64,000 bases of DNA from Bacillota bacterium (GCA_021786825.1 JAJYMS010000134.1:2470-66469), one strand, 5' to 3'; counted from the stretch's first letter, positions 118 through 16,654 are shown. A program made the numbers and translations. The notes: generated by a model not told the origin, from the letters alone.

Positions 118-207
118 GGAGGAGTGCGAGAGCGGTTTAATCGAGCGGTCTTGAAAACCGTCGAGGGTGCAAGCCCTCCGTGGGTTCGAATCCCACCTCC
201 TCCGCCA
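118..207 (+). tRNA. tRNA-Ser (anticodon UGA), 90 nt with encoded CCA
   Basis: Acceptor stem GGAGGAG/CTCCTCC, anticodon stem GCGGT/ACCGT with loop CTTGAAA (anticodon TGA), long variable arm, T-loop TTCGAATC, discriminator G, then CCA. Confidence 0.93.
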
Positions 208-210
208 CCT
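150..210 (+). repeat. attL core (61-bp direct repeat, part of the functional tRNA-Ser)
   Basis: CTTGAAAACCGTCGAGGGTGCAAGCCCTCCGTGGGTTCGAATCCCACCTCCTCCGCCACCT is identical to 16594-16654. The flanking bases differ on both sides. Confidence 0.92.
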
Positions 211-263
211 ATCAACGTCTTGAGGTTCTGGCTCTTATTGGTAGAAAGCGTCCGATAGCCCAT

Positions 264-282
264 CTGCAAACATTTTGCAAAC
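264..282. promoter_or_regulatory. att-arm palindromic motif CTGCAAACATTTTGCAAAC (candidate recombination-directionality or integrase arm site)
   Basis: Inverted repeat TGCAAA-N3-TTTGCA located 54 bp inside attL. The same 19-mer with one mismatch occurs at 16456-16474, 120 bp inside attR. Confidence 0.4.
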
Positions 283-287
283 ATCGG

Positions 288-328
288 CAAAAGAATATGG
301 ACACCGGCACCCCTCAGTACCGGTGTCC
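288..328 (-). terminator. rho-independent terminator downstream of the integrase gene
   Basis: Hairpin GGACACCGG (299-307) / CCGGTGTCC (320-328). On the minus strand it is followed by ATATTCTTTT. Confidence 0.5.
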
Positions 329-344
329 ATGAAGAACCAGGGCC

Positions 345-1505
345 TCAGCTCTGGCGTATCTTCTGGGAAGCAGCCCGTAGCGCGGTGTCAATGCGGCGGG
401 CTGCTTCTTCTTGTAGGCCGGGGAGAACGTGGCTGTAGGTGTCCAGGGTGATCCCGACGGTGGAATGCCCGAGACGCTCAGAGACCACCTTGGGATGGAT
501 GCCTGCGCGAAGAAGCTGACTGGCGTGGCCGTGGCGGAGGTCATGGAAGCGGATGCCCGGGTAGCCGGCCCTCCGGACGACATACCTGAAGGCGTTGGTG
601 AGCGCGCCCGGGCTCCAGGGCTGGCCATCAGGCTGTGCGCAGACAAGGCCGTTGTCCTGGTAGCCCGGTCCCAGCAGAAGTTTTTGCTTCGCCTGCTCCG
701 CTTTATGGCGGCGCAAGCCTTCGACCGCCAATGGGGGAAGAGCGATAACCCGGCGGCTCTTTTGGGTCTTGGGCTGCTTGAAGCGGCACCCCTCCCGCGT
801 CTGCTCCATGGACTGGCGGACGGCCAACGTGCCCGCCCTCAGGTCCACGTCTTGCCACCGGAGGGCCAGGATCTCGCCGCGCCGCATCCCGGTAGTGGCG
901 GCCAACAGGACGGGGAGATACAAGCGGCCCCCTTTCACGGCCTCCAGGAGGCGGGCGGTCGCTTCTTCGTCCAAGGTGCGCGTCTCGTGCCGCCGGGGAC
1001 GCGGCGGTTCCACGGCGTCCGCAGGGTTCCGGGCGAGAAGTTGCCATTTCACGGCCTGACGGAGAGCCTCCCTCAGGACCCGGTGATGGTGGAGGACGGT
1101 TTGCGCCGACAGGCCGCCCTGACCGTCCCGGCGCCCTGACTGGAGGGCCTGGCTGTAATAGGTCTGAATATGCAGCGGCTGAAGACGGGCCAGCGGATGC
1201 CCACCCAAGGCCGGCGCCAGGTGAACCTTGACGATCTCCGCGTACCGCTCGGCCGTTTTGGGTGCCACGTTGGTCTTGGCGTAGTGCTCAAGCCACTGAC
1301 CCAGGTACTCGCTCACCGTGAACTTACTCGGCTCGACGTAGGCACCGGTGTTGAGTTCGTGCAGGACCCGCGTGAGTTCCCGCTCGGCATCCTTTCGCGT
1401 TCGAAAACCACCCTGCCACTTCTGCCGGCGCTTGCCGCCCGAACCCCGGCCAAGATCGAGAACGAAAACCCAGGTGCCCCCCCGCTGCCGGACGTGACCC
1501 TTCAC
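345..1505 (-). CDS. int: tyrosine-type site-specific integrase (phage integrase family)
   Basis: 386 aa. It has an N-terminal SAM-like/arm-binding region. The C-terminal catalytic signature is ...RRGEILALRW...HDLRHGHAS...LGHSTVGITLDTYSHV (R..HxxR..Y). It lies directly beside the target tRNA. Confidence 0.93.
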   Translation of the reverse strand: MKGHVRQRGGTWVFVLDLGRGSGGKRRQKWQGGFRTRKDAERELTRVLHELNTGAYVEPSKFTVSEYLGQWLEHYAKTNVAPKTAERYAEIVKVHLAPALGGHPLARLQPLHIQTYYSQALQSGRRDGQGGLSAQTVLHHHRVLREALRQAVKWQLLARNPADAVEPPRPRRHETRTLDEEATARLLEAVKGGRLYLPVLLAATTGMRRGEILALRWQDVDLRAGTLAVRQSMEQTREGCRFKQPKTQKSRRVIALPPLAVEGLRRHKAEQAKQKLLLGPGYQDNGLVCAQPDGQPWSPGALTNAFRYVVRRAGYPGIRFHDLRHGHASQLLRAGIHPKVVSERLGHSTVGITLDTYSHVLPGLQEEAARRIDTALRAASQKIRQS

Positions 1506-1509
1506 CTAA

Positions 1510-2592
1510 TCATTCGCCCCCTTTCGCGTTTGCGTTTGGTTTGCATTCTCCTGGCGATCCTTTGGTGACGCGGGTTTTAGGTGCCTCGCCGGATTGGGAA
1601 ACCGTCGAGGGACCGTTGTCTCCCCTCTCCCTGGGCGGCCCTGCCCTTCCCCTGCCGGCCTCCTCCCTCTTCTTTCGCCGGAACCGGCGCAGGCGCTCCG
1701 CCGCGGCGCATTCCTTCCGGCAATAGACCTGCTTCTCTCGGCTGGGCGAAAAGAAGCGGTGGCAGGCCGCATTGGCGCACTGCCTAACCGGAAGTGAGCC
1801 CGCCATGTCCAAGGAAAGCATCAGGTACATCGCTGCCAGAAGGTCCGAGGTTCTCCACGTCTGCACCGCCTCCCCGTTTTTGAACTCGAGGTCTGGCCAC
1901 ACGCGCCCCAGCAATTTCCTGCTGGTGAGGGCGGTTAGCAGAGCCTCTCCCCGCTCCAGGGGTGTCTCGGTTGAGGCTGCTCCAGGGCGGCCTTCAGCCG
2001 CTTGCGGCATGAGTCCTCGAAGAAAGGCTTCGTCCCTATCTTTGTGTGCTCGCCATATGCGAAGGGCCTGCCTCATCCAACGGACCTCCTCGCGGAAGTC
2101 CTCCAATCGCTCCGACCTCTCCGCCTTGAGCGAAACTATCGCTGCTTGAGCCAGACGGTTCCTAATGGTCTCCGCTTTCATCTCCTCTTCCAAGAGGTTG
2201 GACCGCTCGGCTTCAGGCAGGCCCTCCACAATCCGGACCAAGTGTGCGGTCGGGGCGTCAGCAAACCCCTCTTCCTCTATGGCCCTACCGAGGATAGAAC
2301 CAAGCGCCAAGGCGCGCCTGGTGTCGCGCCTGGCGGCCGCGATTACCTCGGTTTCCATTTCCTTGACCTTCCTGAGTTCGAGTCCCAGAAGGCCGTACCG
2401 GCCGACAAACGCCTTTATGGCCTCCTCGTCCTGATCGTCAAGCGATGCGAATTCGTAATGCAGGCCGGGCGCTTCTCCCCTTGGATGGTAGTGGTCAAAC
2501 GGATCGTACCTGTCTTGGACATGCACCAGGTGGATCCACCCGTCTTCGATGACCGCAACCCCACGCCGTTGTCCCATGGTGAACGGTTTCAT
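1510..2592 (-). CDS. hypothetical protein with C-terminal Cys-cluster (CGNR-like zinc finger) and basic tail, in the position of a lysogeny repressor
   Basis: 360 aa from ATG 2592, with GGGAGG 5 nt upstream (the ORF track extends to 2616). The C-terminus reads CANAACHRFFSPSREKQVYCRKEC followed by an RRFRRKKREE basic tail. The gene is divergent from the XRE gene. Confidence 0.7.
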   Translation of the reverse strand: MKPFTMGQRRGVAVIEDGWIHLVHVQDRYDPFDHYHPRGEAPGLHYEFASLDDQDEEAIKAFVGRYGLLGLELRKVKEMETEVIAAARRDTRRALALGSILGRAIEEEGFADAPTAHLVRIVEGLPEAERSNLLEEEMKAETIRNRLAQAAIVSLKAERSERLEDFREEVRWMRQALRIWRAHKDRDEAFLRGLMPQAAEGRPGAASTETPLERGEALLTALTSRKLLGRVWPDLEFKNGEAVQTWRTSDLLAAMYLMLSLDMAGSLPVRQCANAACHRFFSPSREKQVYCRKECAAAERLRRFRRKKREEAGRGRAGPPRERGDNGPSTVSQSGEAPKTRVTKGSPGECKPNANAKGGE

Positions 2593-2603
2593 GGCGGCCT
2601 CCC

Positions 2604-2618: not shown

Positions 2619-2706
2619 CGAGACTCTAGACAGTTTCGCGAACGCTCGTTACTCTAAAACTAGCACTCGAACAACGTGAAGTCAAGCAAAGGGGGCGTGG
2701 GTCTTG

Positions 2707-2994
2707 ATGCGTTTAACAAAAGAGCGAATTGCGAGGGGCTGGAGTAAGAACGTCCTCGCCCGGGAAGCGAAAATCACGCCGGCGGACATGTCAAAAATCG
2801 AGTTGAGGCGGATCATTCCGTACGCCGTGCAGTTGCGTAGAATTGCCGCCGCGTTGGGCTTTCCCCAAGAACAGGCTGAAGAACTGCTTCAAGACGTCAA
2901 GGAGGTTCAAAACGATGCAATCGGCGCGGCTCGAGGATCTGCCGGAGGTGCTGACCCCTGCCGAAGCCGCCCGAATCCTGCGGCTGGGGCGTAA
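2707..2994 (+). CDS. XRE-family (Cro/CI-type) helix-turn-helix transcriptional regulator
   Basis: About 95 aa. The sequence MRLTKERIARGWSKNVLAREAKITPADMSKIELRRIIPY is a typical HTH_3 pattern. An AAAGGGGG RBS lies upstream of ATG 2707. Confidence 0.75.
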   Translation: MRLTKERIARGWSKNVLAREAKITPADMSKIELRRIIPYAVQLRRIAAALGFPQEQAEELLQDVKEVQNDAIGAARGSAGGADPCRSRPNPAAGA

Positions 2995-3106
2995 CAGCAT
3001 TTATACCGCCCTGGCCCGGGGGGATATCCCCTCGCTCAGGGTCGGCCGCAAACTGCTCGTTCCCCGGGCGGCCCTCGAACGGCTGCTCAAGGCGGACGCC
3101 CGATGA
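2915..3106 (+). CDS. excisionase-type (MerR-like HTH_17) DNA-binding protein
   Basis: 63 aa from ATG 2915, with AAGGAGG 8 nt upstream. The sequence LTPAEAARILRLGRNSIYTALARGDIPSLRVGRKLLVPRAALERLL matches the helix-turn-helix excisionase family pattern. Confidence 0.75.
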   Translation: MQSARLEDLPEVLTPAEAARILRLGRNSIYTALARGDIPSLRVGRKLLVPRAALERLLKADAR

Positions 3107-3357
3107 TGCTCGGGCCGGCCTTGGCGGCCAGGAGACGGCGGCTGCTTCGCATTTTTTACCCCGTGCCCGACCCCTTCGACTCCGCAGAAAGTTGGGCGCA
3201 GTTCGCTCACCAGGACCTGGCGGCGATGGCCCGGGCCAACCTGCTCAGGGAACGGGACCGGGTGAGATTCGTGTTACTTTTCGACGATAAGCCCGACTCG
3301 TGGTACCTCGAGCGCTTGGTTGAGATCACCGCCCGGTTGGAGGAACAAACCCCGTGA
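3103..3357 (+). CDS. hypothetical protein
   Basis: 84-aa ORF. It overlaps the stop of the upstream gene and the start of the downstream gene by 4 nt each (translational coupling). No motif was recognised. Confidence 0.55.
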   Translation: MMLGPALAARRRRLLRIFYPVPDPFDSAESWAQFAHQDLAAMARANLLRERDRVRFVLLFDDKPDSWYLERLVEITARLEEQTP

Positions 3358-5900
3358 TGCGTGAGAATGCAGTCAACCCAAGAGCGTTGCCGCGTGGCGT
3401 ACGCGCCGATGCCGACGAGGTACGCGAAGCCGCTTGTGGTCACTGGCTCGACATCCTGTCTGCGCTTGGGCCGGCTTTGGCGGAAGCCTGCGGCCGAGTT
3501 GGCAAACACGTCCCCTGCCCAGTCCACGGTGGCAGGGACGGCTTCAGGCTGTTCAGTGACGCAGCGCAAACTGGCGGTGGTGTTTGCAACACATGTGGCG
3601 ACCGGGCGAACGGCTTCGCGGTGCTGCAGTGGGTCAACAACTGGGACTTTCCGCGAACCCTGGAGGAGGTGGCCGGATTCCTCCGCCTTGGTTGCGCCGC
3701 CGTCGCGGTCAGGTCCGCGCCCCGCCCGGCGGAAGCGCAAAGAGAAGCGGGTGATGAGGCCGCACGCCGGCGACGGCTGGAGGCCCTCTGGGGCGAAAGT
3801 GAGCCCGACCCCGGCCGGGTGGCCGAATACCTGCGGCACCGCGGCCTGGCCGGAGTAGTGCCCTGCACCCTTCGCTTGCACCCTGCGCTGGGCTACTTCG
3901 ATGACAAAGCGCAGCACCTCGGCAACTTTCCGGCCGTCCTCGCCCAGGTGCAGCGGCTGGACGGAGAAGTAGCAGCAATCCTGCGAACCTACCTGGACCC
4001 GGCCGGCCCGGGCAAGGCCCCCGTGGACAAACCAAAGAAGCTGACCCCCTCTGTCCGGGCCGGGGCCACACGAGGCGCTGCAATCCACCTGGCCGAGCCA
4101 GGCGAAACCCTGGCCCTGGCCGAGGGGATCGAAACGGCCCTGGCGGTCATGGAGGCCACGGGCGTGCCCGCTTGGGCCGGGGTCAGCGCGGGCGGCCTGG
4201 AGGCCGTCGAACTCCCGCCCCACGTCCACCAGGTCAAGGTATGGGCTGACCACGACGCCAGCGGGGTGGGCCAGCAGGCGGCCGCATCCCTGGCCGCCCG
4301 GCTACACGCCAAAGGGAAAAGGGTGTTGATGATGGTGCCACCCAGAGAGGGCGAAGATTGGCTTGACGTGCTAAACGAGGCGGGCCCGGACGCACTGCGG
4401 GCCGCCCAGGCAGGGGCGGTCCCCTGGGAGCCCGGAGACGGCGCAGAGGCGGAGGACGCGGCCGGCGAGGAAGAGGCCCCGCCAGGGGTTGCCGGGGAGG
4501 ACGTGGCCCCGCTTCCAACCGAAGTCCTGCCCGGCATGTTGGCCCGGTTTGTTGAAGAAGCTGCAGAAGCCATCCCGTGCCCAACGGATTTCGTTGCGGT
4601 GCCCCTCTTGGCCCTGGCCGGCGCGGCAATAGGGACAAGCCGCGTGTTGCAAATCAAACCCGGCTGGCGTGAAGGGCCGCGCCTTTACGCTCCCATCGTG
4701 GCCGACCCCGGCAGCGGGAAAAGTCCGGCCCTCGACCTGGTGGCCCGCCCGGTGTACGAAAGGCAAAAAGTCCTGGCCGGGCAGTTCGAGGTACTGGAGC
4801 ACGCTCACAAGGACGAGATAGCCCGGTACGAGGTTGAACTGCGCACGTGGGAAGAGCGGGCGCGGCTGGCTGCAAAGGGCAAAGGCGCGGATCCCGGGCC
4901 GAAGCCCGAGGAACCGGCAGGCCCAACGATGGCCCGGGTCTTCACGGGCGATACGACCGTCGAGGCCCTGGCCGGCCTCATGCGGGATAATCCCCGGGGT
5001 TTGGCCTTGATCCGCGACGAACTGACCGGCTGGGTACGGGGAATGAATCAGTACAAAGCCGGCAAGGGCGCCGACAAGCAATTCTATCTCTCCGCCTGGA
5101 GCGGCGCCCCTTACCCCGTAGACCGCAAAAGCGGCCCGCCTGTCTTGCTCTTCGACCCCTTCTTGAACGTGGTTGGGTGCATCCCCCCCGACCTGCTCGA
5201 CGAGCTGACCGACGAGCGGGGCCGTGAAGACGGCTTCGTGCACCGCCTGCTGTTTGCCTACCCAGACGCCGTGCCCCGGCGCTGGACCGAGACCACGGTT
5301 TCCGAAGAAGCCCAGAACGCCTGGCGTCGGGCACTGGATGCCCTGTGGCGTCTAGAACCCGCGGTGGACCGCGACGGGAAGCCTGAACCCGTGGCGCTTC
5401 CCTTCAGTGAGGAAGGCAAACGGGCCTGGGTGGAGTTTTGCGACGCGCACTACAGCAAGTTAGCGGACCCGTCTTTCCCGGTCCACCTGCGGGGGGCCTG
5501 GGCGAAACTGGACGGCTACTGCGCCCGCTTGGCGCTGATTCTCCAGGAATTGCGCCGCGCCTGCGGCGAGGCCAATAGCGAGGCCGTGGACACGGTCAGC
5601 GTCACGGGTGCGTGGGCCCTGGTGGACTATTTCAAGAACCACGCCCGGCGGGTGTACCGCCGTCTGCGGGCCGACGCCGATGACAAGCGAGCCGAGGGCG
5701 CGGCCAACTGGATCAAGGCTCGGGGTGGAGAGTGCCGGGCCAGGGACCTTATCGCCTATGGCGTGGCTGGGGTCAAGAAAGCGTCCCAGGCCCAGAAGTT
5801 GTTAGAAGACTTGGTTGATCGTGGCCTGGGGAGGCTCGAAGAGCGACCGCCACGCGGTGGACGAGGGAGACCCTCAACATGGTTCGCGCTCGCGCAGTGA
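3354..5900 (+). CDS. primase/helicase-like replication protein (zinc-binding + Toprim-like + DUF3987-like P-loop region)
   Basis: 848 aa. It has an N-terminal zinc motif (CPVHGG...CNTCG), a central Toprim-like segment (LAEGIETALA...VWADHDASG) and a C-terminal degenerate Walker A (ADPGSGKS), as in P4-alpha/DUF3987-type primase-helicases. Confidence 0.88.
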   Translation: MMRENAVNPRALPRGVRADADEVREAACGHWLDILSALGPALAEACGRVGKHVPCPVHGGRDGFRLFSDAAQTGGGVCNTCGDRANGFAVLQWVNNWDFPRTLEEVAGFLRLGCAAVAVRSAPRPAEAQREAGDEAARRRRLEALWGESEPDPGRVAEYLRHRGLAGVVPCTLRLHPALGYFDDKAQHLGNFPAVLAQVQRLDGEVAAILRTYLDPAGPGKAPVDKPKKLTPSVRAGATRGAAIHLAEPGETLALAEGIETALAVMEATGVPAWAGVSAGGLEAVELPPHVHQVKVWADHDASGVGQQAAASLAARLHAKGKRVLMMVPPREGEDWLDVLNEAGPDALRAAQAGAVPWEPGDGAEAEDAAGEEEAPPGVAGEDVAPLPTEVLPGMLARFVEEAAEAIPCPTDFVAVPLLALAGAAIGTSRVLQIKPGWREGPRLYAPIVADPGSGKSPALDLVARPVYERQKVLAGQFEVLEHAHKDEIARYEVELRTWEERARLAAKGKGADPGPKPEEPAGPTMARVFTGDTTVEALAGLMRDNPRGLALIRDELTGWVRGMNQYKAGKGADKQFYLSAWSGAPYPVDRKSGPPVLLFDPFLNVVGCIPPDLLDELTDERGREDGFVHRLLFAYPDAVPRRWTETTVSEEAQNAWRRALDALWRLEPAVDRDGKPEPVALPFSEEGKRAWVEFCDAHYSKLADPSFPVHLRGAWAKLDGYCARLALILQELRRACGEANSEAVDTVSVTGAWALVDYFKNHARRVYRRLRADADDKRAEGAANWIKARGGECRARDLIAYGVAGVKKASQAQKLLEDLVDRGLGRLEERPPRGGRGRPSTWFALAQ

Positions 5901-5904
5901 TTAC

Positions 5905-6115
5905 TCGACCCAGCACACTACACAAATGCCTGGCGCTTACAACCACAAGGGTTATAAGTGCTGACGCCCACCCAGCACGCACCCAGCAGTTTTCCGGTGT
6001 GGCCGGGAGATAGAGAAAAGTGCTGGTTAAGTGCTGGGTAACTGCTGGGTACCGTTCAGCAGGTATAGCCCTAGAGCCACAAGGGTTTGGGGTAAGTTGC
6101 AGGGTGCTGGGTTGA
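5905..6115. repeat. iteron cluster, candidate replication origin of the element
   Basis: CCCAGCAC/G appears at 5909, 5971 and 5982. Its complement GTGCTGG(G/T) appears at 6020, 6031, 6043 (CTGCTGGG) and 6104. Three of these form 11-bp tandem units at 6018-6050. CCACAAGGGTT is repeated at 5943 and 6077. A locally AT-richer segment lies around 6005-6035. The cluster sits immediately 3' of the primase-helicase gene. Confidence 0.5.
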
Positions 6116-6148
6116 GTAGTGAGGGAAAAAACGGCGGAGGTGATCCTC

Positions 6149-6586: not shown

Positions 6587-6636
6587 ACGCCTGCGGCGGG
6601 GGATCGGGCGGCCAGGCGAAGAACGAAGGAGGAACG

Positions 6637-7050: not shown

Positions 7051-7239
7051 GTGCCCAATCTCAATAATCTGCACCGCGAAAAGCAAGGAAAATGTCTCGT
7101 CCTAATACCCGCCTCGAGTCTGCCTGGTATCTGCGCCGTGCAAGGCCACGGCCGCGAACTGGCCCTGGTCCTGCAAGGTGCGCTGATCAAGATCGAGGGC
7201 GAGGTGTTCCTGGAGGTTCACAAGATCGAACTCAAATAA
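7051..7239 (+). CDS. hypothetical small protein
   Basis: 62-aa ORF starting at a GTG immediately after the upstream stop codon. Its composition is protein-like, unlike the overlapping frame 7092-7313. Confidence 0.4.
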   Translation: MPNLNNLHREKQGKCLVLIPASSLPGICAVQGHGRELALVLQGALIKIEGEVFLEVHKIELK

Positions 7240-8316: not shown

Positions 8317-11300
8317 ATGCCCTTCACACCTGAGGGCAAGCGGAGGCCGTGGACACCCGAAGAACTCGCTCAACTCCAGGCCAAGCGTGCCCCTACCGCG
8401 CCGTTGCCTGCGAGCACGGCTCCCAAGCCGTCGGAGCCCGCCCCCTTCGCCAAGGCCGCCAAGGCCCTGGCCGCCCGACTGGCCGAAATCCAACCGGCCT
8501 CCGAGGTGCCCGAGTTGCCGGAACCGACCCCGGCCAGCTTCGGCGCCCTCCGCCAAGTTGAAGCGCCGACGGGTCCCGAGGAGACCTTCCTGGAGCGGGT
8601 GGGCGACCGGATCAAGGAACTATACGAGGGGACCAGGGAGGTCGGCCAGTACCTCGTGAGCGGTGCCTCTGGGTCCCTGAGGGTGCCCCAACTGGCCCGC
8701 TCCGCCGCCAAGCACAACGTCACCGGGGCCGAGGGGGTTCTGCCGCCGCAGGAGGTCACCGGGTCCCCGGACTACGGGAACCTCAACCCCGCCTACTTTG
8801 GCATCAAGCCGGTGGAGGAGGCCAGGCACATCCCGCAGTGGGTGGCTGAGATGGCCACGGGTGCCGGCGAGGTCGCGCCCTACGTCCTTGGCGGGGCAGT
8901 GTTGGGCACTCTGGGGGCCGGTGCGGAGGCCGTCGGCGGTGAGGGAGCCGCCAAACTGTTGACCAAGGTGGCCCCGCGTCTGGCCCGGGCGCGGGCCGGC
9001 CAGGCGCTGACCGGCCTCGTTGGCCCGGCCGTCAGGGTCGGCGCCGAGATGGCCGCGGTCACCGCCGGCCAGAAGCTCGCCGACCTGGCGACTCAGGATC
9101 GGCCTATCACCGGTCTCGACCTGGCCGGCGCAGGCAAGGAGATCGCCGGTGGCTTCCTGGCCGGCGCGGGCCTGGGTGTCGCCGGGAGGGTGGCTGGCGA
9201 ACCCGTCCGCAAGGTCCTGGGGAGGAGCCTGGGGGGTGCCACAACATCCGGAATCGAAGGAGCCGTCCGCCGCGGGACCGTCGCCGCCACGGGCGGCGCG
9301 GCAACCGGTGCTACGCTGGCCGTCCTGAACACCGGCTTCCAGGCCCTGGCGCATCCCGGGCAGTTCAACGCCGGGCAGGCCACTTCCACCGCCCTGCGCG
9401 AAACGGCGTTCTTCGGGTTACTCGACGCCGTGATGTCGGCCATGCAAGGGTCCGTACCGAAAGCCGGGGCGTTCAAGTTCAGGCCCGGGGAGGCACCCGT
9501 GCCCGTTGGTGCGGGTGGCCCTCGCCGCGAAGGCTACACCGAAGTCCGGCCTGGGGTTTGGCTGAAGGCCGATCCCGCGACCGGCCGCCCGGCGGAAGCC
9601 ATAGTGGAACCGGCCAGGTACGGGGACTGGCGGACCAGGGAGGCCGCCGAACCGGGCGCGTCCGCCACCGCCGGGGTGGAGTCCGAGCTGGGCAGGCGCG
9701 TGGATGAGGTGGTGGGCGACATCGCCCCCCCGGCCGGCTTGTCCGTTGAACTCGTGGGGGGGCCGGGCCCCCGCCAGACGGAGGACGGCTTTGCCTTCTC
9801 AAACCCCGAGATCGAGGCCCGCTACCAGGCGGCGCACGGTGTCCGCGCCCCCGGCCTGGGGGCGAAGGCGCGGGAGCTTCTGGGGTCACTCTACCGCAAG
9901 GCCACCCGCGAATACGAGTGGCTTCCGCACACACCCGAATTTGCCCCCCTCCGCTTTAACCTGCTGCGCCTGAGCAAGCAGAAAGGCGTGGCCGGTGATA
10001 GAACCCTCAGGCTTCAGCAGGGGATCACCATCGGCCTGAAAGGCGACCCCAAGGGGTTCAGCCTGTTCGAGCGCAAGGTTCTCCTGGACGACCTGGCCGA
10101 GGAGGCCGAGGCCGGACACGACCTGCCCTTCGGGTTTAACCGCGAGGTCCTGGCGGCGGACAAGGCACGCCTTGACGCCGAGGCAGCAAAGAACCCCGCG
10201 ATTGGGGAGGCCGTCGCCCAGCGCCGGCAGGTCTGGGAGGCGATCAAGGGGGACTACATCGAGGCCATGCAGGCCGTGGGGTTCGATGTCGCCGACCGTT
10301 TCACCCGGGAGAACTACTTCCGCCATCAGGTCTTGGAGTACGCCAACGTCCGGGGGCTGTCCGGTACCGGCGGCAAGCTCCGGACGCCGACGGGGAGAGG
10401 CTTTCTTAGACAGCGGGAGGGCAGCGCCTACGACATCAACACCAACTACCTTCAGGCCGAGCACGAGGTCATGGCGCAGATGCTCTATGACATCGAAGTG
10501 GCCAAGGTGATCAAGTTTGTCGGCGACAGGTACAACATCGCCCCCCTGCTCAAGGCCGAGGGCACCGACTGGAGGAAGTCTATTCCCGCCGGGTACACGG
10601 CCTGGCAGCCCGGGGAGGGCAATACCTTCTACTTCGCCGACTCCGTCCCGGCCCGGGTGGCTGAACGGCTTTACTCCGGCGCCCTGAAGGAAATCGGCGT
10701 CGGCGCCGACGAGTTGCGGCGCGTGCTGGCCTTGGGTCAGCGTTTCCCGGAGATGGTGGTCAAAGAAGAGGTCGCCAAGACGCTCGACAACCTCACCAGG
10801 AGCCGCCCGGCCGACCCGATCCGCGACGTGGCCCGGGGCCTCCTCACCAGGTGGAAGATCTGGCAACTAATCAACCCGCTGCGGTTCCTCAAGTACAACT
10901 TCAACAACCTTTCCGGCGACGCGGACGCGGTTTTCGCCGGCAACCCCTCCACCTTTAAGAAGGCTCCCCAGGCCGCCAGCGAACTGTACCGGGTTTTCGC
11001 CGGGGACGGCGCCATGTCTGACGAGATGCGCGAGTGGTTCAACCGCGGCGGCATGCAGTCTACCCTCCAGGTCCAGGAGCTCGGGGACATCAACCAGCTT
11101 CGCATGTTCCAGGACCTCCTCGACCAAAAGGGTTCGTGGCGAGAGGTCCCGACCCGGGTCTGGCAAGCTTACTGGAAGAAGGCGCGGCTGTCCACCGACT
11201 TCCGGGAGGCCATTCTCCGGTACGCGGCTTACCTCGATTACCTCGAACAGATGCAGGGACGCGGCGGCCGGCCCCGGAACTTCGGGGCTTCAATCCCATC

Positions 11301-12465
11301 GGAGATCATGGCCCTCGACGACATCCGGGACCGGGCCTTTTGGCTCTCCAACGACCTGCTGGGCGCTTACGACAAGGTGTCCGTGCTGGGTCAGGGGTTG
11401 CGGGAGTATTGGTATCCCTTCTGGTCGTGGAAGGAGATCAACTTCAAACGGTATGTCCAACTGATCAAGAACGCGGCCTGGGACGAGGGACTGGCGCGGG
11501 TCACGGCCGCCAAACTGGTGCCCGTGCTGGCCCGGCGGTCCCCGGTGATCGCCCTCAGGGTCGGGGCGTTCGCGCTCCGGGCGGCGGGACTGGTGGCCCT
11601 GCTTTCGGCCTGGAACCATCTGCGGTATCCTGACGAAGAGGAAAGACTGCCGGCAGACGTCCGTGACCGGCCGCACCTGATCCTGGGGACGGACGCCAAG
11701 GGCAACATCAGATACACGGACCGGCTGGGGGCCCTCCCCGACTTCTTGCAGTGGTTCGGGCTGGAGAGCCCGCGGGCGCTCGTCCGCGACTACCTGAACG
11801 GGCACAAATCGGTCGCCCAGGTTGCAGTCGAGATGGCGAAGGCCCCTGTGAACGTCCTGGTGCAGGGGTTTGGGCCGCAAAAGACGCTGGTCGAGGTGGT
11901 CACCGGCAAGAGGCTGTACCCGGACCTGTTCGAGCCGGGCCCCGTCCGCAACGCCGGCCTTCACATCGCCCAGAGCCTCAGCCTGGGGGACGTATACTCC
12001 CGGCTGAAGGGGCTGCCGACCCGTCCGTTTGACCCCGGAAGCCTCCTCCATAAGGTGGCGGATCCGGGCGAGGCGGCGTACTACGACATTCTCGACGCCA
12101 AGCAGGAATTCCTGAAGAGCAAGGGCAAGCCGGGCGGGTACCGGGGGTCGGTGAGCCCCACCAGCCAGGCGCTGTACTACCTGAAGCTGGCCGCCCGCTA
12201 TGGCGACCGGGAGGCGTTTGGGAAGTACCTGCTCGAGTTCGCCAACCTCGGCGGTTCGGCCAAAGGACTGGGGACATCACTCCGGAACCTGAACTCCCTG
12301 GATGGCCTGACGGCCCCCGAAGCCCAGGAGTTCATCACCAGGTGGCTTGACGCTGAAGGGCGCCAGCGGCTGGCAACGGCAGAACGGTTTTACAAGGAGA
12401 CCCTCCTGGGCAACACTGCCCGATTCTTTCAAGAGGCGGTCCGAAAGAGGAGCGCCCGCCCCTGA
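8317..12465 (+). CDS. giant hypothetical protein (1382 aa), unassigned function
   Basis: Single uninterrupted ORF with RBS GGAAAGGGGAAG. It has a Pro/Ala-rich N-terminal linker and a long Gly/Ala-rich hydrophobic stretch (GAGEVAPYVLGGAVLGTLGAGAEAVGG...). A large helical C-terminal part carries motifs such as RENYFRHQVLEY and INPLRFLKYNFNNLSGD. There is no P-loop or any catalytic motif I can name. Confidence 0.9.
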   Translation: MPFTPEGKRRPWTPEELAQLQAKRAPTAPLPASTAPKPSEPAPFAKAAKALAARLAEIQPASEVPELPEPTPASFGALRQVEAPTGPEETFLERVGDRIKELYEGTREVGQYLVSGASGSLRVPQLARSAAKHNVTGAEGVLPPQEVTGSPDYGNLNPAYFGIKPVEEARHIPQWVAEMATGAGEVAPYVLGGAVLGTLGAGAEAVGGEGAAKLLTKVAPRLARARAGQALTGLVGPAVRVGAEMAAVTAGQKLADLATQDRPITGLDLAGAGKEIAGGFLAGAGLGVAGRVAGEPVRKVLGRSLGGATTSGIEGAVRRGTVAATGGAATGATLAVLNTGFQALAHPGQFNAGQATSTALRETAFFGLLDAVMSAMQGSVPKAGAFKFRPGEAPVPVGAGGPRREGYTEVRPGVWLKADPATGRPAEAIVEPARYGDWRTREAAEPGASATAGVESELGRRVDEVVGDIAPPAGLSVELVGGPGPRQTEDGFAFSNPEIEARYQAAHGVRAPGLGAKARELLGSLYRKATREYEWLPHTPEFAPLRFNLLRLSKQKGVAGDRTLRLQQGITIGLKGDPKGFSLFERKVLLDDLAEEAEAGHDLPFGFNREVLAADKARLDAEAAKNPAIGEAVAQRRQVWEAIKGDYIEAMQAVGFDVADRFTRENYFRHQVLEYANVRGLSGTGGKLRTPTGRGFLRQREGSAYDINTNYLQAEHEVMAQMLYDIEVAKVIKFVGDRYNIAPLLKAEGTDWRKSIPAGYTAWQPGEGNTFYFADSVPARVAERLYSGALKEIGVGADELRRVLALGQRFPEMVVKEEVAKTLDNLTRSRPADPIRDVARGLLTRWKIWQLINPLRFLKYNFNNLSGDADAVFAGNPSTFKKAPQAASELYRVFAGDGAMSDEMREWFNRGGMQSTLQVQELGDINQLRMFQDLLDQKGSWREVPTRVWQAYWKKARLSTDFREAILRYAAYLDYLEQMQGRGGRPRNFGASIPSEIMALDDIRDRAFWLSNDLLGAYDKVSVLGQGLREYWYPFWSWKEINFKRYVQLIKNAAWDEGLARVTAAKLVPVLARRSPVIALRVGAFALRAAGLVALLSAWNHLRYPDEEERLPADVRDRPHLILGTDAKGNIRYTDRLGALPDFLQWFGLESPRALVRDYLNGHKSVAQVAVEMAKAPVNVLVQGFGPQKTLVEVVTGKRLYPDLFEPGPVRNAGLHIAQSLSLGDVYSRLKGLPTRPFDPGSLLHKVADPGEAAYYDILDAKQEFLKSKGKPGGYRGSVSPTSQALYYLKLAARYGDREAFGKYLLEFANLGGSAKGLGTSLRNLNSLDGLTAPEAQEFITRWLDAEGRQRLATAERFYKETLLGNTARFFQEAVRKRSARP

Positions 12466-12501
12466 GCCGGGGGAAGGTCTGCGGAAAGAAGGTGAGCATT
12501 G

Positions 12502-12825
12502 ATGCCTTACAAGGATCCCGGCAAGCGGCGGGACTACGCCCGGGAATACGGCCGGCTTCGGAGAGCGGGGGGGCGTCAAACCCCTGGTCAAACCCTGGTG
12601 CCCCTGCCCTTCCGACTGCGCACCGCTCACGACATCCTGGCCCTGCTGGCGGAGCAGGTGGCCGCCGTCAGGGCCGAGGCGGACGCCGGGACGTTGGAGA
12701 AGGCCCGCACCGTCGGCTACCTCTCGGGAATCGCCCTGAAAACCGTCGAAGTGACCGACCTGGAGGCCCGGCTGAAAGTGCTCGAGGACCGGCTCGCCCA
12801 AGACGTCAAGTTGCGGCGGGCGTGA
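12502..12825 (+). CDS. hypothetical protein (basic N-terminus PYKDPGKRRDYAREYGRLRR, helical C-terminus)
   Basis: 107-aa ORF from ATG 12502, with GAAAGAAGGTGAG upstream. It has better protein-like composition than the overlapping frame 12492-12830. Confidence 0.6.
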   Translation: MPYKDPGKRRDYAREYGRLRRAGGRQTPGQTLVPLPFRLRTAHDILALLAEQVAAVRAEADAGTLEKARTVGYLSGIALKTVEVTDLEARLKVLEDRLAQDVKLRRA

Positions 12826-12830
12826 CAACG

Positions 12831-13319
12831 ATGGAGGTGGAGAACGTAGGTTTGAAGCGGCGGATCGAGCGTCTTGAAGTTGCCGTCCGGGGCGCGGCCG
12901 CCGGCCTCTGCCCGGTCTGTGGCGGCCGGCCTTTCGTCATTCTCCCCGCGGCTGAGGTTGAGCGCCGACTCGCGGAGTTGGGCGACGCAAAGGGCAGCCC
13001 GCATGGGGACACCCCCATTTGTCACTGCCTCGTGCTGGGCCCCGAGGAGGTCGACCGGCGGATTGCGCTGCTCAACCTCGAGCCAGTCGCGGAGCTCCCC
13101 CCAGGCCCTGCTGAGCGCGAGCCCGAACCCGCCGTGACCGCCCCTGACCAAGCGCGGCCAGCAGTGCCCCGGCGAGAGGCAGAGCCGCCGGTACGGGCCC
13201 CCGTGGCCGTGGCCAGGGAGGCCCAGGCCGAGAAGGCCCGGCCGCCCGCCCCCCAGGCCGACAGAAGCCCTCAGGGCGAACAGGACGACGATCATCCCGG
13301 GGTGGGGTTTCGTTGGTGA
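12831..13319 (+). CDS. hypothetical zinc-ribbon-like protein with Pro-rich C-terminal half
   Basis: 162 aa from ATG 12831, directly after the upstream stop codon. It has a CPVCGG...CHC cysteine pattern followed by a PEPAVTAPDQARPAVPRREAEPPVRAP low-complexity tail. Confidence 0.55.
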   Translation: MEVENVGLKRRIERLEVAVRGAAAGLCPVCGGRPFVILPAAEVERRLAELGDAKGSPHGDTPICHCLVLGPEEVDRRIALLNLEPVAELPPGPAEREPEPAVTAPDQARPAVPRREAEPPVRAPVAVAREAQAEKARPPAPQADRSPQGEQDDDHPGVGFRW

Positions 13320-13520
13320 GGAAGGGGACAAGTGGCAACTTACCGCCTCCAATGACCTTCTCCGCGTTGTCTCAATGTGGCTGGGTAACAGGGGGGTGCT
13401 CGCGTGGGGCGCGACGGCGACCAACAAGGCGGCCTGCAGCACCGTCCGGGTTAGAGGAATATCACACCGCGGTCGGGAATAGTCGCCCACCGAGGTCTGC
13501 TGAAAGAGGGGGCGCAAGGG

Positions 13521-13910
13521 ATGAAACGGCTGGTGGTACCGAGCATTCTGGTGGTGCTGCTTCTCTTGGCCATGGCATTTCGATGGACGCCTTGGCGCAC
13601 CTTGTTTACCTCTTCCCAGTCCCCAAACCAGGTGAGTTACCGCGAAGATCGCTGGAGCGGGCGGCGATGGGTACTACTGATTGGCATGGCGGGTCCGGAT
13701 AACGAAAAGCAGCTTGTCGCGTTGGAGCGTCCCGCCCTCCGCCAAGTTGTCGCCCCCGAGAAGGTGCGCGAAACGGAACAGGCGATCGCTACAACTAGAG
13801 ACCGCTGGACACAGGCCTGGTGGGGAGCTCTCCTTGCGGCGGCGGTGTGGTTACGCATCGCTGTGCGGCAACAGCGAAAGGTGTCCCGAGTCGAGGAGCC
13901 ACCGGCATAG
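13521..13910 (+). CDS. hypothetical membrane protein (N- and C-terminal hydrophobic helices)
   Basis: 129 aa with an AAAGAGGGGG RBS. The N-terminal segment is MKRLVVPSILVVLLLLAMAF and the C-terminal segment is WWGALLAAAVWLRIAV. Confidence 0.65.
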   Translation: MKRLVVPSILVVLLLLAMAFRWTPWRTLFTSSQSPNQVSYREDRWSGRRWVLLIGMAGPDNEKQLVALERPALRQVVAPEKVRETEQAIATTRDRWTQAWWGALLAAAVWLRIAVRQQRKVSRVEEPPA

Positions 13911-13944: not shown

Positions 13945-14045
13945 AGGGGCGAGTTATAAGTATCGAGCCCGGTACACCACCTTCGCCAGCCCGTGCCGCG
14001 GATCTAACGCCCCCGGCCAAGTCGACTCCACACAGGTCTTGGGAC

Positions 14046-14729
14046 TTAGGGAACGTACTTCGTCCCGACGAGAAGGCGGCCTCTCTCGCGGCTGCCATTG
14101 CCGTCCAACTCGATGTCGACCCACTGCCTGCGTTGATCATCCCACCTTCCGATGGTGCGGTACTGCCGGTTGAATACATCTAGATACACTACTTCCAAGA
14201 GCGTGCCGTAATCTTCCGCTGGTGTGCATAGTTGGCCCCCGGTCCGACTCCGAACGACCTCGGTGCGATCGGACTTCGGGGGGACCAGCCCTATCAATGT
14301 TTCGAAGAGTGTTCTAGCACTTCCATCCCAAAGGCGAACCAGCACGTCCAACGCCGGACCGGGCCCACAATTGTCGACCTGTAGACACTCGCCGGCGCGC
14401 CCAAAGGGCGAGTGCGTTAATACCCTACCTGGTTCCTGCAACTGAGGAGCCCCAAACGGGACAATGATTGGGCGCACTGCAGCCCACCGCTCCTCGCGCA
14501 TTTCGTTTAAGGCGCCCTCAGCCGCTCTAGCCTGTTTCCGCTGAGCTACCGCTTGCACTTGTGCCCATACAACCACCGCGGCGGTAACAAGTAGATTGCC
14601 CACGGTCGCGAGGGCCATGACTACGGCGGATTTCTGTTCAAGCCAGGAGAAGGCAGCGGCGACCGGTGACCACACTGACCATAACAACCCCACTGCACGC
14701 TCCTCTCTCGGGAGACGGACTGTGCGCAC
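14046..14729 (-). CDS. hypothetical membrane-anchored protein (two N-terminal hydrophobic helices, beta-rich C-terminal domain)
   Basis: 227-aa ORF in a segment that looks lower in GC than its surroundings. The helices are LLWSVWSPVAAAFSWL and AVVMALATVGNLLVTAAVVVWAQV. The start codon is uncertain (GTG 14729 has no clear RBS). Confidence 0.6.
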   Translation of the reverse strand: MRTVRLPREERAVGLLWSVWSPVAAAFSWLEQKSAVVMALATVGNLLVTAAVVVWAQVQAVAQRKQARAAEGALNEMREERWAAVRPIIVPFGAPQLQEPGRVLTHSPFGRAGECLQVDNCGPGPALDVLVRLWDGSARTLFETLIGLVPPKSDRTEVVRSRTGGQLCTPAEDYGTLLEVVYLDVFNRQYRTIGRWDDQRRQWVDIELDGNGSRERGRLLVGTKYVP

Positions 14730-14794
14730 TTGGGGGGGGCCAGTCCCCTTAGAATGGCTTGCCTGGAGTTTGAGGTCCTGGTGAATGAGCCAAC

Positions 14795-15040
14795 CTAGAC
14801 GGCGTTTCTCCGGACTGGCCGCCCCCCCGCAGGGGCGGCTTCCGTTTCCTTTTGATCCCGCTCCAGCTTTCGCTCCCAGTCCTTCCCCAGGTACTCGTCG
14901 AGGTCGGCCCGCCGGATGTAAACTTGGCGCCCGAACCGAGTCGCCGGGAGTTTCTCTTGGCGGGCCAATTCGTAGACCCTGTCGCGAGTCAGTCCGGCGA
15001 GTTGAGAAAACTCTTTGGCCGTAAGCAGTGCTTTCTTCAA
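14795..15040 (-). CDS. excisionase-type HTH_17 DNA-binding protein (paralog 2)
   Basis: Starts at TTG 15040 with AGGAGGTG 8 nt upstream (the ORF track extends to 15127). The sequence LLTAKEFSQLAGLTRDRVYELARQEKLPATRFGRQVYIRRADLDEYL matches the family pattern. Confidence 0.68.
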   Translation of the reverse strand: MKKALLTAKEFSQLAGLTRDRVYELARQEKLPATRFGRQVYIRRADLDEYLGKDWERKLERDQKETEAAPAGGRPVRRNAV

Positions 15041-15220
15041 AGCTGCTGCACCTCCTGTTTGTGGCTTTTTCGGCCCCTTAGCATGGCCCTGGAAGCGGGG
15101 CCAGCCGACTTCGGACCCTCTGGTCAAGTTCTGCGCGCCCTCACACTCTTCTTGTCGAATCCCACCAAGAGAGTCCCCCCTCTCTGTGCGGGAGGGGGAA
15201 GGCCTGCTCGGGTGAGCACC

Positions 15221-15442
15221 TTATTTCGTCCGGCCCTTGCCCTTGGGCAACGGAGCCAGCAACGTGTCGAGTTCATCTTGTCGGTAGCGCTTGTCGTCGG
15301 TGCCCGCCAGGGCGTAGGGTATGATCCTGCCGTCACGCACCATCCGGTAGAAGGTGGCCTTCGATATTCGGAGGTGCTCCATAGCCTGCTTAGGGGTCAT
15401 CCATACTGGTGCCAATGCTTGCGCCTCCTCGGTCTCCATCAT
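15221..15442 (-). CDS. excisionase-type HTH_17 DNA-binding protein (paralog 3)
   Basis: Starts at ATG 15442 with GAGG upstream (the ORF track extends to 15529). The sequence MTPKQAMEHLRISKATFYRMVRDGRIIPYALAGTDDKRYRQDELDTLL matches the family pattern. Confidence 0.68.
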   Translation of the reverse strand: MMETEEAQALAPVWMTPKQAMEHLRISKATFYRMVRDGRIIPYALAGTDDKRYRQDELDTLLAPLPKGKGRTK

Positions 15443-15587
15443 ATCAGCCTCAAAGGGGTTCGTAAAGAGTCTTAAGGTCTCACTGGGTATTGACCTGGGT
15501 GATTCTATATGATACCATAGGACACGCAACAGCCATGCGGACGCGGACTTGGTACTTCCGGCGTGAGCACGTGGGGGAGGTAGGAAG

Positions 15588-15752
15588 ATGAATCTAGAAA
15601 CCGGCCATCAACCCAAGATTTCCGGCGATGGAGTCCTGACTGTGGTGGAGGATCCGGAGCTGAAATCAATTCAGTACATCCTGCTGGGCGCAACACTCGT
15701 CATCGGGTCATCTGCATCAGAACAGGAGGGCAAACAAAATGCCGAAGCCTGA
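15588..15752 (+). CDS. hypothetical small protein (54 aa), paralog of the next ORF; below the ORF-track length cut-off
   Basis: ATG 15588 is preceded by GGGGGAGGTAGGAAG. The translation is MNLETGHQPKISGDGVLTVVEDPELKSIQYILLGATLVIGSSASEQEGKQNAEA. It shares the core VV(E/R)(D/E)PELKSI with ORF 15739-15978 and overlaps it by 14 nt. Confidence 0.45.
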   Translation: MNLETGHQPKISGDGVLTVVEDPELKSIQYILLGATLVIGSSASEQEGKQNAEA

Positions 15753-15978
15753 CGCCGGCGAGGTCAAGATCGACCAGAAGCTCGAACTGCCCGGGGGAGA
15801 GACGCTGTTTGTGGTAAGAGAGCCCGAGCTAAAGTCAATCGCGTTCATGGTGGCCGGTTCCGCGGTTTACGTGTCGCCCGGAATTGACCCGGAGAGCGAA
15901 GCTGCCCTGGAGGCCGCGCTGGCAGAATCCTACCCGCACGCTGGAATCAAGGCGTCCGGAGGGCGGCTGACGGTCTAG
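15739..15978 (+). CDS. hypothetical small protein (79 aa)
   Basis: ATG 15739 has a GGAGGG RBS. A strong terminator follows. It is paralogous to the 54-aa ORF upstream. Confidence 0.55.
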   Translation: MPKPDAGEVKIDQKLELPGGETLFVVREPELKSIAFMVAGSAVYVSPGIDPESEAALEAALAESYPHAGIKASGGRLTV

Positions 15979-16002
15979 CATCGCCAAAGCGGCAAGCATC
16001 AA

Positions 16003-16037
16003 GGGAAGGGGCCGGGACCCCTTCCCTTTTTGTTTTT
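16003..16037 (+). terminator. rho-independent terminator
   Basis: GGGAAGGGG (16003-16011), loop CCGGGA, CCCCTTCCC (16018-16026), then TTTTTGTTTTT. Confidence 0.78.
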
Positions 16038-16455
16038 GCGGCGCAAAGCCGTCCCACCCTGTTGGCCACGCCTACCCCCAGGCCCCGAGACCCGCGTCAC
16101 TCCGCTTTTTTCGTAACGTCCCAACTTTCCCGAGCCCCGGAAACTGCGTCATGCCGCTTTCTTCGTTTAATTCGTTTCTTTCGTACTGGAGGTGACGCTT
16201 AAAATGGACCTTGAACCCGGGACTCGCCAAGTCCATCCCGGTCCCCCAGGCCGGCAGAAATCCCTGAGGTGGGGACGCCCGGCTTTTCACCGGAGGTCGG
16301 TGAGAAGCCCCCGGCGGTCGACCGGGAGACGCCAGGTTTTCACGAAGCTCGTAAAAAACCCCAAAGAGGCCGGCCGGGCAACACCGCGCCCCCTTGGGCC
16401 GAGCGGTTGGCCCCTCGAAGCGCCGGGAGGTCTCTACAAGTTTCGTCCGGCCCCC

Positions 16456-16474
16456 CTGCAAACGTTTTGCAAAC
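16456..16474. promoter_or_regulatory. att-arm palindromic motif CTGCAAACGTTTTGCAAAC (partner of 264-282)
   Basis: 18 of 19 positions are identical to 264-282. It lies in the 550-bp non-coding arm next to attR. Confidence 0.4.
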
Positions 16475-16593
16475 CAACGCCGAGGGACGAGCCGGTTTTT
16501 GACGGGACCAAAGAGGACGTGCGCGGCCCCGTGGCCTTACAGGGTAAGGCTTTCGGGGACCAAGAGGGACGAAGCGGGACGGCGAACATCGCA

Positions 16594-16654
16594 CTTGAAA
16601 ACCGTCGAGGGTGCAAGCCCTCCGTGGGTTCGAATCCCACCTCCTCCGCCACCT
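16594..16654 (+). repeat. attR core (displaced 3' part of tRNA-Ser, not a functional tRNA)
   Basis: 61 bp identical to 150-210. It lacks the acceptor 5' strand, D arm and 5' anticodon stem. Confidence 0.92.

Follow-up and report, generated by a model that had tools for sequence, protein, structure and literature searches.

A 16.4-kb element at tRNA-Ser(UGA) of a Bacillota bacterium with a satellite-like layout and putative ejection-type and fibre-like virion proteins

The closest described counterparts of the locus reported here are phage satellites, namely the phage-inducible chromosomal islands (PICIs), the Staphylococcus aureus pathogenicity islands (SaPIs) and P4. Satellites of the PICI and SaPI type are islands of 8–20 kb bounded by att direct repeats, with an integrase gene at one end, divergent regulators or an AlpA-type helix-turn-helix (HTH) protein, and then a primase or replicase with an adjacent origin; they are further marked by genes that interfere with packaging or the capsid (TerS, Ppi, Cpm/Rpp), by having no structural or lysis genes, and by needing a helper for their induction, packaging and transfer. 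P4-like satellites have the capsid and transactivation genes Sid, Psu and Delta and an alpha-type primase. A small terminase subunit (TerS) without the large subunit (TerL) is the classical satellite signature. The capsid-forming PICIs (cf-PICIs) build part of the virion and borrow the rest from the helper, encoding a head (major capsid protein, portal, protease, connectors and TerS) and borrowing tails. To our knowledge, no described PICI, SaPI, P4 or PICI-like element (PLE) carries homologues of the ejection or internal-virion and fibre-like proteins of a helper, and in the literature we found no description of an element without head and terminase genes that has both. The element described here lies in a stretch of 64,000 nucleotides from a Bacillota bacterium (GCA_021786825.1, JAJYMS010000134.1:2470-66469), which was analysed as a whole and is called the window. 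It is a cleanly delimited insertion of 16,444 bp in the 3' half of a tRNA-Ser(UGA) gene. Satellites and small prophages commonly have a front half like this one, and the combination with two late proteins, a 1382-aa protein named BIG and a protein with HxH repeats, is unusual. We give an even chance to the reading that this is a satellite-like integrative element that descends from temperate podoviruses, probably parasitises them, and carries ejection and fibre-like proteins of its own.

Integration site and front half of the element

The boundaries are given by a direct repeat that starts two bases before the anticodon of the intact tRNA-Ser (152–154 by ARAGORN) and ends three bases past the end of the tRNA. 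The full repeat spans 150–213 and 16594–16657; it is exact for 61 bp, and the copies diverge directly after positions 210 and 16654. The window holds two copies of the att core against a chance expectation of 0, and with only these two a tandem or composite element was ruled out. The original terminator hairpin of the tRNA is found at 16674–16691, just outside attR, and it is because of the exact repeat at tRNA-Ser together with this displaced terminator that the element can be called cleanly delimited. On one side of the element is tRNA-Ser(UGA) and on the other serS, the gene for seryl-tRNA synthetase, which follows attR on the minus strand (16976–18247). In a second assembly of the locus (L002, 424–1106) the window start is closely preceded by a tRNA-Arg/Arg/Ser(GCU) cluster. 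The element has a G+C content of 64.8%, and the remainder of the window one of 66.2%. About 87% of the element is coding, its open reading frames (ORFs) are intact, and most genes have a Shine-Dalgarno sequence and a high G+C content at third codon positions (GC3).

Imperfect short direct repeats with 52-nt spacing occur at 16077–16166 and 16482–16577, within a non-coding stretch of about 600 bp before attR, and could be candidate arm sites of the integrase; the one arm-site motif examined, AGAGGRACG near attR, showed no enrichment. Neither an empty attB nor attP nor a further att core copy was found in JGI metagenomes or IMG/VR, an uninformative result as the host lineage is unrepresented there. 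The serS, integrase and primase-helicase genes are singletons at 90% identity in the collections searched.

The integrase, encoded next to attL, comprises Arm-DNA-bind_4, SAM_3 and Phage_integrase domains (Pfam), and a terminator-like hairpin lies beside its gene at 330–297. Next to it, a gene for a 360-aa protein in repressor position is transcribed divergently from the gene for an XRE-type regulator. The 360-aa protein has no Pfam match and no close relative in IMG/VR; a homologue is encoded at the equivalent place in L006, which is a small element without BIG and shares with the present one the integrase (31% identity), the 360-aa protein (39%), the XRE protein (52%) and a zinc-ribbon protein. 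The XRE ORF overlaps the following HTH_17 gene by 80 nt and was missed by the metagenome gene caller; despite this omission it is credible because of its HTH_31 match and its L006 homologue.

The sole Walker A motif of the element is that of the helicase, at aa 450 of the fused primase-helicase, a protein with no close relative in IMG/VR. Directly downstream of this gene, units of the form ACCCAGCA(C/G) (ACCCAGCAS) form two inverted groups with 11-bp spacing. Six of the seven matches in the entire window fall within 5908–6112, compared with 1.3 expected in 64 kb, and the cluster is thus a putative iteron-type origin.

An earlier reading, made from the sequence alone, had reported the exact repeat from the anticodon loop, the integrase adjoining the intact tRNA, a divergent regulator pair with an excisionase-type HTH, and a primase/helicase-like gene with an iteron cluster, and had likened this layout to that of P4 and PICIs. 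Repeat comparison and ARAGORN bear out the integration site, the Pfam and PHROG domains support the genes, and the motif count supports the iterons. In its size of about 16 kb, its tRNA integration, its terminal integrase, its divergent regulators and AlpA/Xis-type HTH protein, and in its primase-helicase followed by iterons, the element resembles PICIs, SaPIs and P4.

The giant protein BIG and the HxH-repeat protein

BIG consists of a Gly/Ala-rich N-terminal part and a conserved C-terminal module (C-module) of about 940 aa (9649–12462). The whole protein matched nothing in Pfam, PHROGs, NCBIfam or the PDB by sequence, nothing in a single-protein scan of a genome collection, and only itself in a word-indexed search, where the Gly/Ala-rich part probably swamps the word index. 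The C-module alone gave 160 matches in the same word-indexed search, and a full HMMER search with aa 400–1382 gave 2133 clusters (representatives at 50% identity), 1561 of them with E<1e-30 and with identities up to 61%. The match lay at the C-terminal end of proteins of 900–5500 aa in all 150 of the best matches listed. An alignment of 40 diverse members contains 46 invariant and about 130 nearly invariant columns. BIG of the element retains 143 of the 155 positions conserved in at least 90% of members, which is inside the family range, and judged by these positions the copy is not decaying.

An alignment-based scan of species-representative genomes returned 26 matches. All are in metagenome-assembled genomes (MAGs), and the lineages are uncultured and for the most part anaerobic (Bacillota, Desulfotomaculum, Syntrophales, Desulfobacterales, Planctomycetota, Dehalococcoidia, Nitrospira and Synergistaceae), and tblastn with the C-module gave zero matches in 50,697 GenBank phage records and 72,556 plasmids. 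Most of the IMG/VR contigs that carry BIG are 35–65 kb long, and BIG is the only gene kept at BLAST level across 92 otherwise unrelated loci.

In T7 the gene order is gp12-gp13-gp14-gp15-gp16-gp17, with gp16 an internal virion or ejection protein. The IMG/VR contig L001 (44.7 kb, 40% G+C), whose homologue is 46% identical over aa 492–1367 of BIG, carries in turn a tail protein (phrog_376), two matches to internal virion protein PHROGs, a 530-aa ORF, the BIG homologue and a tail fibre; this order matches gp12-gp17 and therefore places BIG at the gp16 position. At other loci BIG follows tailspike, CBM96 or P22 gp10-like genes and precedes holin and endolysin genes and then an integrase; tail-protein or P22 gp10-like genes lie upstream of it in at least 13 loci. 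Like T7 gp16 and the polyvalent proteins, BIG is very large, mostly helical and encoded at the end of a late operon, after tail or internal-virion genes and before fibre or lysis genes. It differs from gp16 in that the C-module has no sequence match or significant PDB fold match and shows a conservation well above that usual for ejection proteins; the equivalence is one of position, there being no PHROG, Pfam or PDB sequence match between the two.

The N-terminal parts of BIG relatives carry ART-PolyVal, SNF2 helicase, DdrB-ParB, SLT lytic transglycosylase, NlpC/P60, DnaJ and GNAT domains. Such N-terminal fusions are a hallmark of polyvalent proteins, which have been proposed to be injected with the DNA and in which DdrB-ParB, RelA/SpoT, LPD38 and lysozyme domains are of phage type only (Iyer et al. 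2017, PMC5512222). The 445 N-terminal residues of the element's own BIG contain no enzyme or effector domain according to Pfam, NCBIfam and PADLOC, unlike those of these relatives. Polyvalent proteins have been found in conjugative elements as well (PMC5512222), and the DUF7146/Toprim region of the primase-helicase has a weak similarity, at E 1e-9 and well short of the curated cut-off, to the C-terminal part of TraI. Both points would suit an integrative mobilizable element moved by conjugation, with the polyvalent-type protein as a travelling effector. We regard this as highly improbable: Pfam, PHROG and NCBIfam searches found no relaxase, coupling protein or type IV secretion system gene in the element, the C-module is unmatched in the plasmids searched, and BIG relatives have domains of phage type only and are encoded within late operons of phages.

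AlphaFold predicts an all-alpha C-module with fair confidence (pLDDT 76, pTM 0.76). Its fold matches 60 models of the viral structure database BFVD with E<1e-3 (best 3.7e-35, TM 0.4–0.55), which are C-terminal pieces of proteins annotated as "large polyvalent protein associated domain-containing". Their sources include uncultured Caudovirales, Cellulophaga phage phi19:3, Escherichia phage PTXU04 and a "tail protein" of Anabaena phage A-4L, and several have LT_GEWL, RelA/SpoT, Zeta-toxin or ART N-terminal parts. Two other assignments were rejected. Identity with LPD38 was ruled out, as BIG has no Pfam match and the A2 hidden Markov model misses the giant LPD38 protein of locus L003; an RNA polymerase or another enzyme, an idea raised by the strong conservation, had no fold or profile support. 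Taken by its family, synteny and predicted fold, BIG appears to be a podophage internal-virion or ejection-type protein of a very large uncurated family.

For the second large late protein, HxH, there are matches to two PHROGs, phrog_4311 ("minor head protein") and phrog_32822 ("virion structural protein"), in both cases to their C-terminal parts. A word-indexed search gave 19 relatives, and 18 loci were found in IMG/VR. Members have an N-terminal helix, a conserved EDNVDATHPL motif, a run of HxH repeats of variable length and a conserved C-terminal beta domain. In the AlphaFold2 (AF2) model both ends pack together as a single, confident beta-sandwich, and the His-rich insert is unmodelled (pLDDT <50 for aa 87–232). 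The protein has no PDB sequence match, and Foldseek against the PDB returned only weak matches to jelly-roll and carbohydrate-binding-module-like folds, none of them significant. Homologues occur in an SU10-like podophage contig, where they lie among tailspike and fibre-region genes, beside the 2506-aa LPD38 giant protein of L003, and together with BIG and an integrase in the temperate contig L079. HxH metal-binding fibres are known, and from this and the genomic context we infer that HxH is probably a fibre or adhesin.

Two further occurrences of the family were observed. At 8154–9515 of L006 three consecutive genes each end in the HxH-family C-terminal beta domain (39–63% identity to the HxH protein of the present element), which suggests a cassette of paralogous fibre-tip-like proteins. 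The only match to HxH in deposited phage records is a homologue of the C-terminal domain at 3792–4058 of GenBank MT837222.1 (32% identity, E 2e-4), an unannotated 7.4-kb 'Bacteriophage sp.' from human faeces.

The sequence-only reading had listed an HxH-repeat protein and a 1382-aa ORF, and had considered a satellite with an adhesin of its own. The HxH-repeat protein is indeed present, and it proves not to be anonymous, as it belongs to a known phage virion or tail-region family (phrog_4311) with podophage homologues. Nor is the 1382-aa ORF an anonymous adhesin: its 2133 clusters, the synteny in L001 and the BFVD folds place it in the internal-virion or polyvalent family of podophages. These assignments also bear on an autonomous, non-tailed virus-like element (pleomorphic, membrane-borne or vesicle-borne), in which HxH would be the spike, BIG a membrane-penetrating delivery protein and the small membrane proteins part of an envelope. 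An intact gene set lacking capsid and ATPase genes would fit such an element, as would the Gly/Ala-rich N-terminal part and the one strongly hydrophobic segment of BIG, the two membrane-anchored ORFs, and the small membrane protein recurrently linked to BIG. We nonetheless judge it improbable, because the structural half is made of tailed-phage parts: both large late proteins come from families found within the virion modules of tailed podophages, and contigs with BIG are mostly phage contigs of 35–65 kb. PHROGs contain no pleolipovirus or plasmavirus homologue of any protein of the element.

Missing genes, related elements and the origin of the element

No ORF of the element matched a capsid, portal, terminase, protease, tail-tube or lysin family in Pfam, PHROGs or NCBIfam, even when PHROG matches were accepted at E<=5. 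In particular, there was no profile match to an HK97-fold major capsid protein, a portal or a large terminase, and no second P-loop. Sid, Psu, Delta and the P4 alpha-type primase were likewise unmatched (PHROGs, Pfam), the primase-helicase being of the Toprim_3 plus DUF3987 type, and PADLOC found no defence system. Apart from the integrase, primase-helicase, 360-aa protein, HxH and BIG, all ORFs encode at most 215 aa; TerS, scaffold or defence roles were considered for the small ones and dropped, as no matches were obtained in PHROGs at E<=5, PADLOC or NCBIfam. Structure prediction covered HxH (AF2) and the C-module of BIG (AlphaFold). The remainder of the window (16.7–64 kb) contains no phage genes and no helper prophage.

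The absence of recognisable capsid, portal, terminase, relaxase and packaging ATPase genes, first noted by eye, thus stands after profile searches, and the ORFs within 6149–13910 gave none of the ordinary capsid, portal or terminase matches that had been named as the mark of an ordinary small prophage. Of the description of the late block as a structural half, the lack of a P-loop ATPase holds, as the only Walker A motif is that of the helicase; two of its proteins, BIG and HxH, are members of virion-type families.

Four further loci have BIG and replication genes and no head genes, two of them with integration genes. L010/L018, from a Bacillota MAG, comprises two HTH_17 genes, Toprim plus DUF3987, about ten small genes including one for a TerS-like 126-aa protein, ORFs of 384, 406 and 212 aa, and BIG, followed by a reverse-strand membrane protein gene and toxin-antitoxin-like cargo. 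L012, on a 330-kb MAG contig, has an integrase, a DnaG-like primase, a 617-aa protein, a TerS-like 125-aa protein, a 442-aa protein and BIG. L016, from a Desulfotomaculum MAG, has VapE, SNF2, RusA, a transcriptional activator, ORFs of 201, 128 and 379 aa, BIG and a membrane protein. L031, from Planctomycetota (183-kb contig JACZRS010000006.1), is an element of 19,635 bp whose limits are set by an exact 52-bp repeat (2440–2491 and 22075–22126) that overlaps tRNA-Arg(TCG) beside the integrase; the element encodes a 518-aa ORF, a 1861-aa BIG, a 233-aa ORF, a 698-aa FG-GAP protein, an AAA_25 helicase and the integrase. L031 (2440–22126) is the second fully delimited element with BIG. Profile searches found no capsid and, the TerS-like genes aside, no terminase in any of these loci, and outside the replication proteins no Walker A motif occurs in them except for one pattern match within the BIG of L031.

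The TerS-like family of about 125 aa matches several terminase-small-subunit PHROGs at E of about 1e-5, with members in L010 (5277–5657), L012 (7706–8083), L006 (6475–6885) and L003 (9454–9957); none of these four has a large terminase. In a neighbour-joining tree of the C-module, the BIG proteins of small elements fall at four or more separate places among phage BIG proteins. L010 and L016 have in common only a three-gene cassette (pre-BIG end, BIG, membrane protein) at 71–80% identity, and their replication modules are unrelated. One might take the element and relatives such as L031 for capsid-less or membrane-borne elements that need no helper, use a co-opted ejection protein for delivery and have HxH or FG-GAP as adhesin; we hold this to be unlikely.

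Temperate phages with BIG (L124, L078, L079, L101) carry tail genes, pre-BIG, BIG, holin and endolysin, integrase, immunity region and early genes, and the element has the same circular order minus the terminase-to-tail block and minus the endolysin. Such a map could arise by one or two deletions in a temperate podophage, and the likeness to a cryptic prophage is evident: a temperate podovirus at tRNA-Ser would have lost one contiguous morphogenesis block and the lysin, and would now be immobile or moved by accident. This is the main rival explanation, possible but less probable than a satellite. The element differs from a cryptic prophage in having no gene debris; it is compact, with Shine-Dalgarno sequences and neither gene fragments nor pseudogenes, and its integrase and replication module are intact. 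The satellite reading is favoured because the genes are intact, the att repeat is perfect over 61 bp and BIG keeps the conserved family positions; because BIG separates the lost lysin from the lost block, which would otherwise call for a second deletion; and because the reduced design recurs in independent, unrelated lineages (four or more lineages of BIG, with another tRNA-delimited element among them) and relatives carry a TerS-like gene without TerL, a further likeness to PICIs, SaPIs and P4, as is the lack of capsid, portal and large terminase genes. Of the alternatives raised initially, a satellite is thus the best supported, a non-tailed virus is disfavoured by the tailed-phage parts, and a degraded prophage is weakened by intactness and recurrence.

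If the element is a satellite, it would excise by means of its integrase and an HTH_17 protein upon infection by, or induction of, a helper podophage, replicate from the iterons and be packaged in heads made by the helper; its 16.4 kb amounts to about one third to two fifths of the 35–50-kb contigs in which BIG is most frequent. BIG and HxH from the element itself would be loaded into or onto the particle, and BIG would deliver the DNA to the next cell, without the toxic or effector N-terminal domains seen in many phage BIG proteins, whereupon the element would integrate at tRNA-Ser.

Several results weigh against a satellite, and some of them equally suit the defective prophage. No TerS or other packaging gene was recognised among the ORFs by PHROGs even at E<=5, and no capsid-size-redirection gene and no cos or pac feature was detectable, so the packaging and capsid interference genes (TerS, Ppi, Cpm/Rpp) by which PICIs and SaPIs are recognised are lacking; nor is the element free of structural genes as these islands are, since head and lysis genes are absent but BIG and HxH are of virion type. 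The searched collections, which do not include the host lineage, yielded no helper phage and no excision junction, nor an empty site or an encapsidated copy. The related small elements were gathered by searching with BIG, so the comparison set is biased and the retention of BIG is partly an ascertainment effect. In the PDB, Foldseek found no match to the BIG model at E<0.1, T7 gp16 included, only generic helical repeats, and a virion role of BIG is deduced from synteny, fused domains and predicted-fold matches to uncharacterised phage proteins.

Compared with PICIs, SaPIs and P4, the element carries homologues of helper-type virion proteins, has no detectable TerS, Sid/Psu/Delta or Cpm-like gene, and would have a podovirus as its presumed helper. 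In building part of the virion and borrowing the rest it would resemble the cf-PICIs, but with the roles exchanged: it would borrow head and tail tube and supply internal ejection and fibre-like proteins. If it is a satellite, this is a division of labour without a known description, in which a satellite controls how the next host is entered and not capsid size or packaging, and it would widen the known range of satellite genes. Similar elements occur across several uncultivated, mostly anaerobic phyla. The C-module family itself, very large, unusually conserved, and without a Pfam, PHROG or PDB counterpart or a representative in about 50,000 deposited phage genomes, is a target for structural and functional work on the delivery of DNA and effector domains by podophages.

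Remaining genes of the element

The features of the element are compiled in Table 1. The co-directional late block spans 6149–13910 and the reverse-strand block, with the 215-aa ORF and two HTH_17 genes, spans 14046–15442; the late block (coiled-coil protein, 62-aa ORF, HxH, 1382-aa ORF, zinc ribbon and membrane protein) and the reverse-strand cargo are present much as first described.

Table 1. Features of the tRNA-Ser element, in window coordinates
Feature	Position	Strand	Evidence or remarks
tRNA-Ser(UGA), intact, integration target	118-207	+	ARAGORN; Rfam tRNA, 53 bits
attL core	150-210		61-bp exact repeat, start in anticodon loop
Tyrosine integrase with arm-binding domain	345-1505	-	Pfam PF00589/PF14659/PF14657; phrog_1, E 2e-83
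360-aa protein, Cys-rich basic C-terminus, repressor position	1510-2592	-	phrog_30403 at C-terminal end, E 7e-5
XRE-type HTH regulator, cro-like position	2704-2994	+	HTH_31, E 9e-9; L006 homologue, 52% identity
HTH_17 (Xis/AlpA-type) DNA-binding protein	2915-3106	+	PF12728, E 8e-13; gene call
84-aa ORF	3103-3357	+	No matches in Pfam or PHROGs
Primase-helicase (Zn_Ribbon_Prim, DUF7146, Toprim_3, DUF3987)	3354-5900	+	Pfam; phrog_510 primase, phrog_2373 helicase
Iteron cluster, putative origin	5902-6118		Six exact ACCCAGCA(C/G) units, inverted groups, 11-bp spacing
145-aa ORF	6149-6586	+	GC3 0.81, Shine-Dalgarno; no family matches
137-aa helical coiled-coil protein	6637-7050	+	
62-aa ORF, coding status uncertain	7051-7239	+	Gene call; low GC3, 0.67
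HxH-repeat protein, phage virion/tail-region family	7314-8249	+	phrog_4311, E 1e-23; phrog_32822
BIG, 1382 aa	8317-12465	+	Gly/Ala-rich N-part, aa 1-~445; conserved all-alpha C-module, aa ~445-1382
107-aa basic/helical ORF	12502-12825	+	No significant matches
162-aa CxxC...CxC zinc-ribbon protein	12831-13319	+	Sequence; L006 homologue, E 1e-9
129-aa membrane protein, N-terminal anchor	13521-13910	+	Transmembrane segment, aa 1-24
215-aa membrane-anchored ORF, cargo	14046-14693	-	No PADLOC, Pfam or NCBIfam match
HTH_17 protein, cargo/regulator	14795-15040	-	PF12728, E 5e-12; phrog_66
Second HTH_17 protein	15221-15442	-	PF12728, E 2e-10
Two small ORFs, 54 and 79 aa	15588-15978	+	Gene calls; terminator-like hairpin after, 16001-16028
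attR core, displaced 3' part of tRNA-Ser	16594-16654		Then host tRNA terminator, serS

The 137-aa coiled-coil protein is weakly similar to the 128-aa protein encoded upstream of BIG in L016 (28% over 71 aa, pairwise E 6e-5). Homologues of the 129-aa membrane protein adjoin BIG in L010, L016 and L021, and another is found in L003; this recurrent neighbour of BIG may be an immunity or superinfection-exclusion partner. The family members, often on the strand opposite to BIG, are located at 14220–14648(-) of L010, 12821–13309(-) of L016, 4234–4611(-) of L021 and 11881–12927(-) of L003. A terminator-like hairpin lies at 13944–13920, beside the 215-aa cargo gene. The two HTH_17 genes of the reverse-strand cargo are paralogous, and the G+C content of the cargo region (14001–16000) is about 60% versus about 65% for the whole element.

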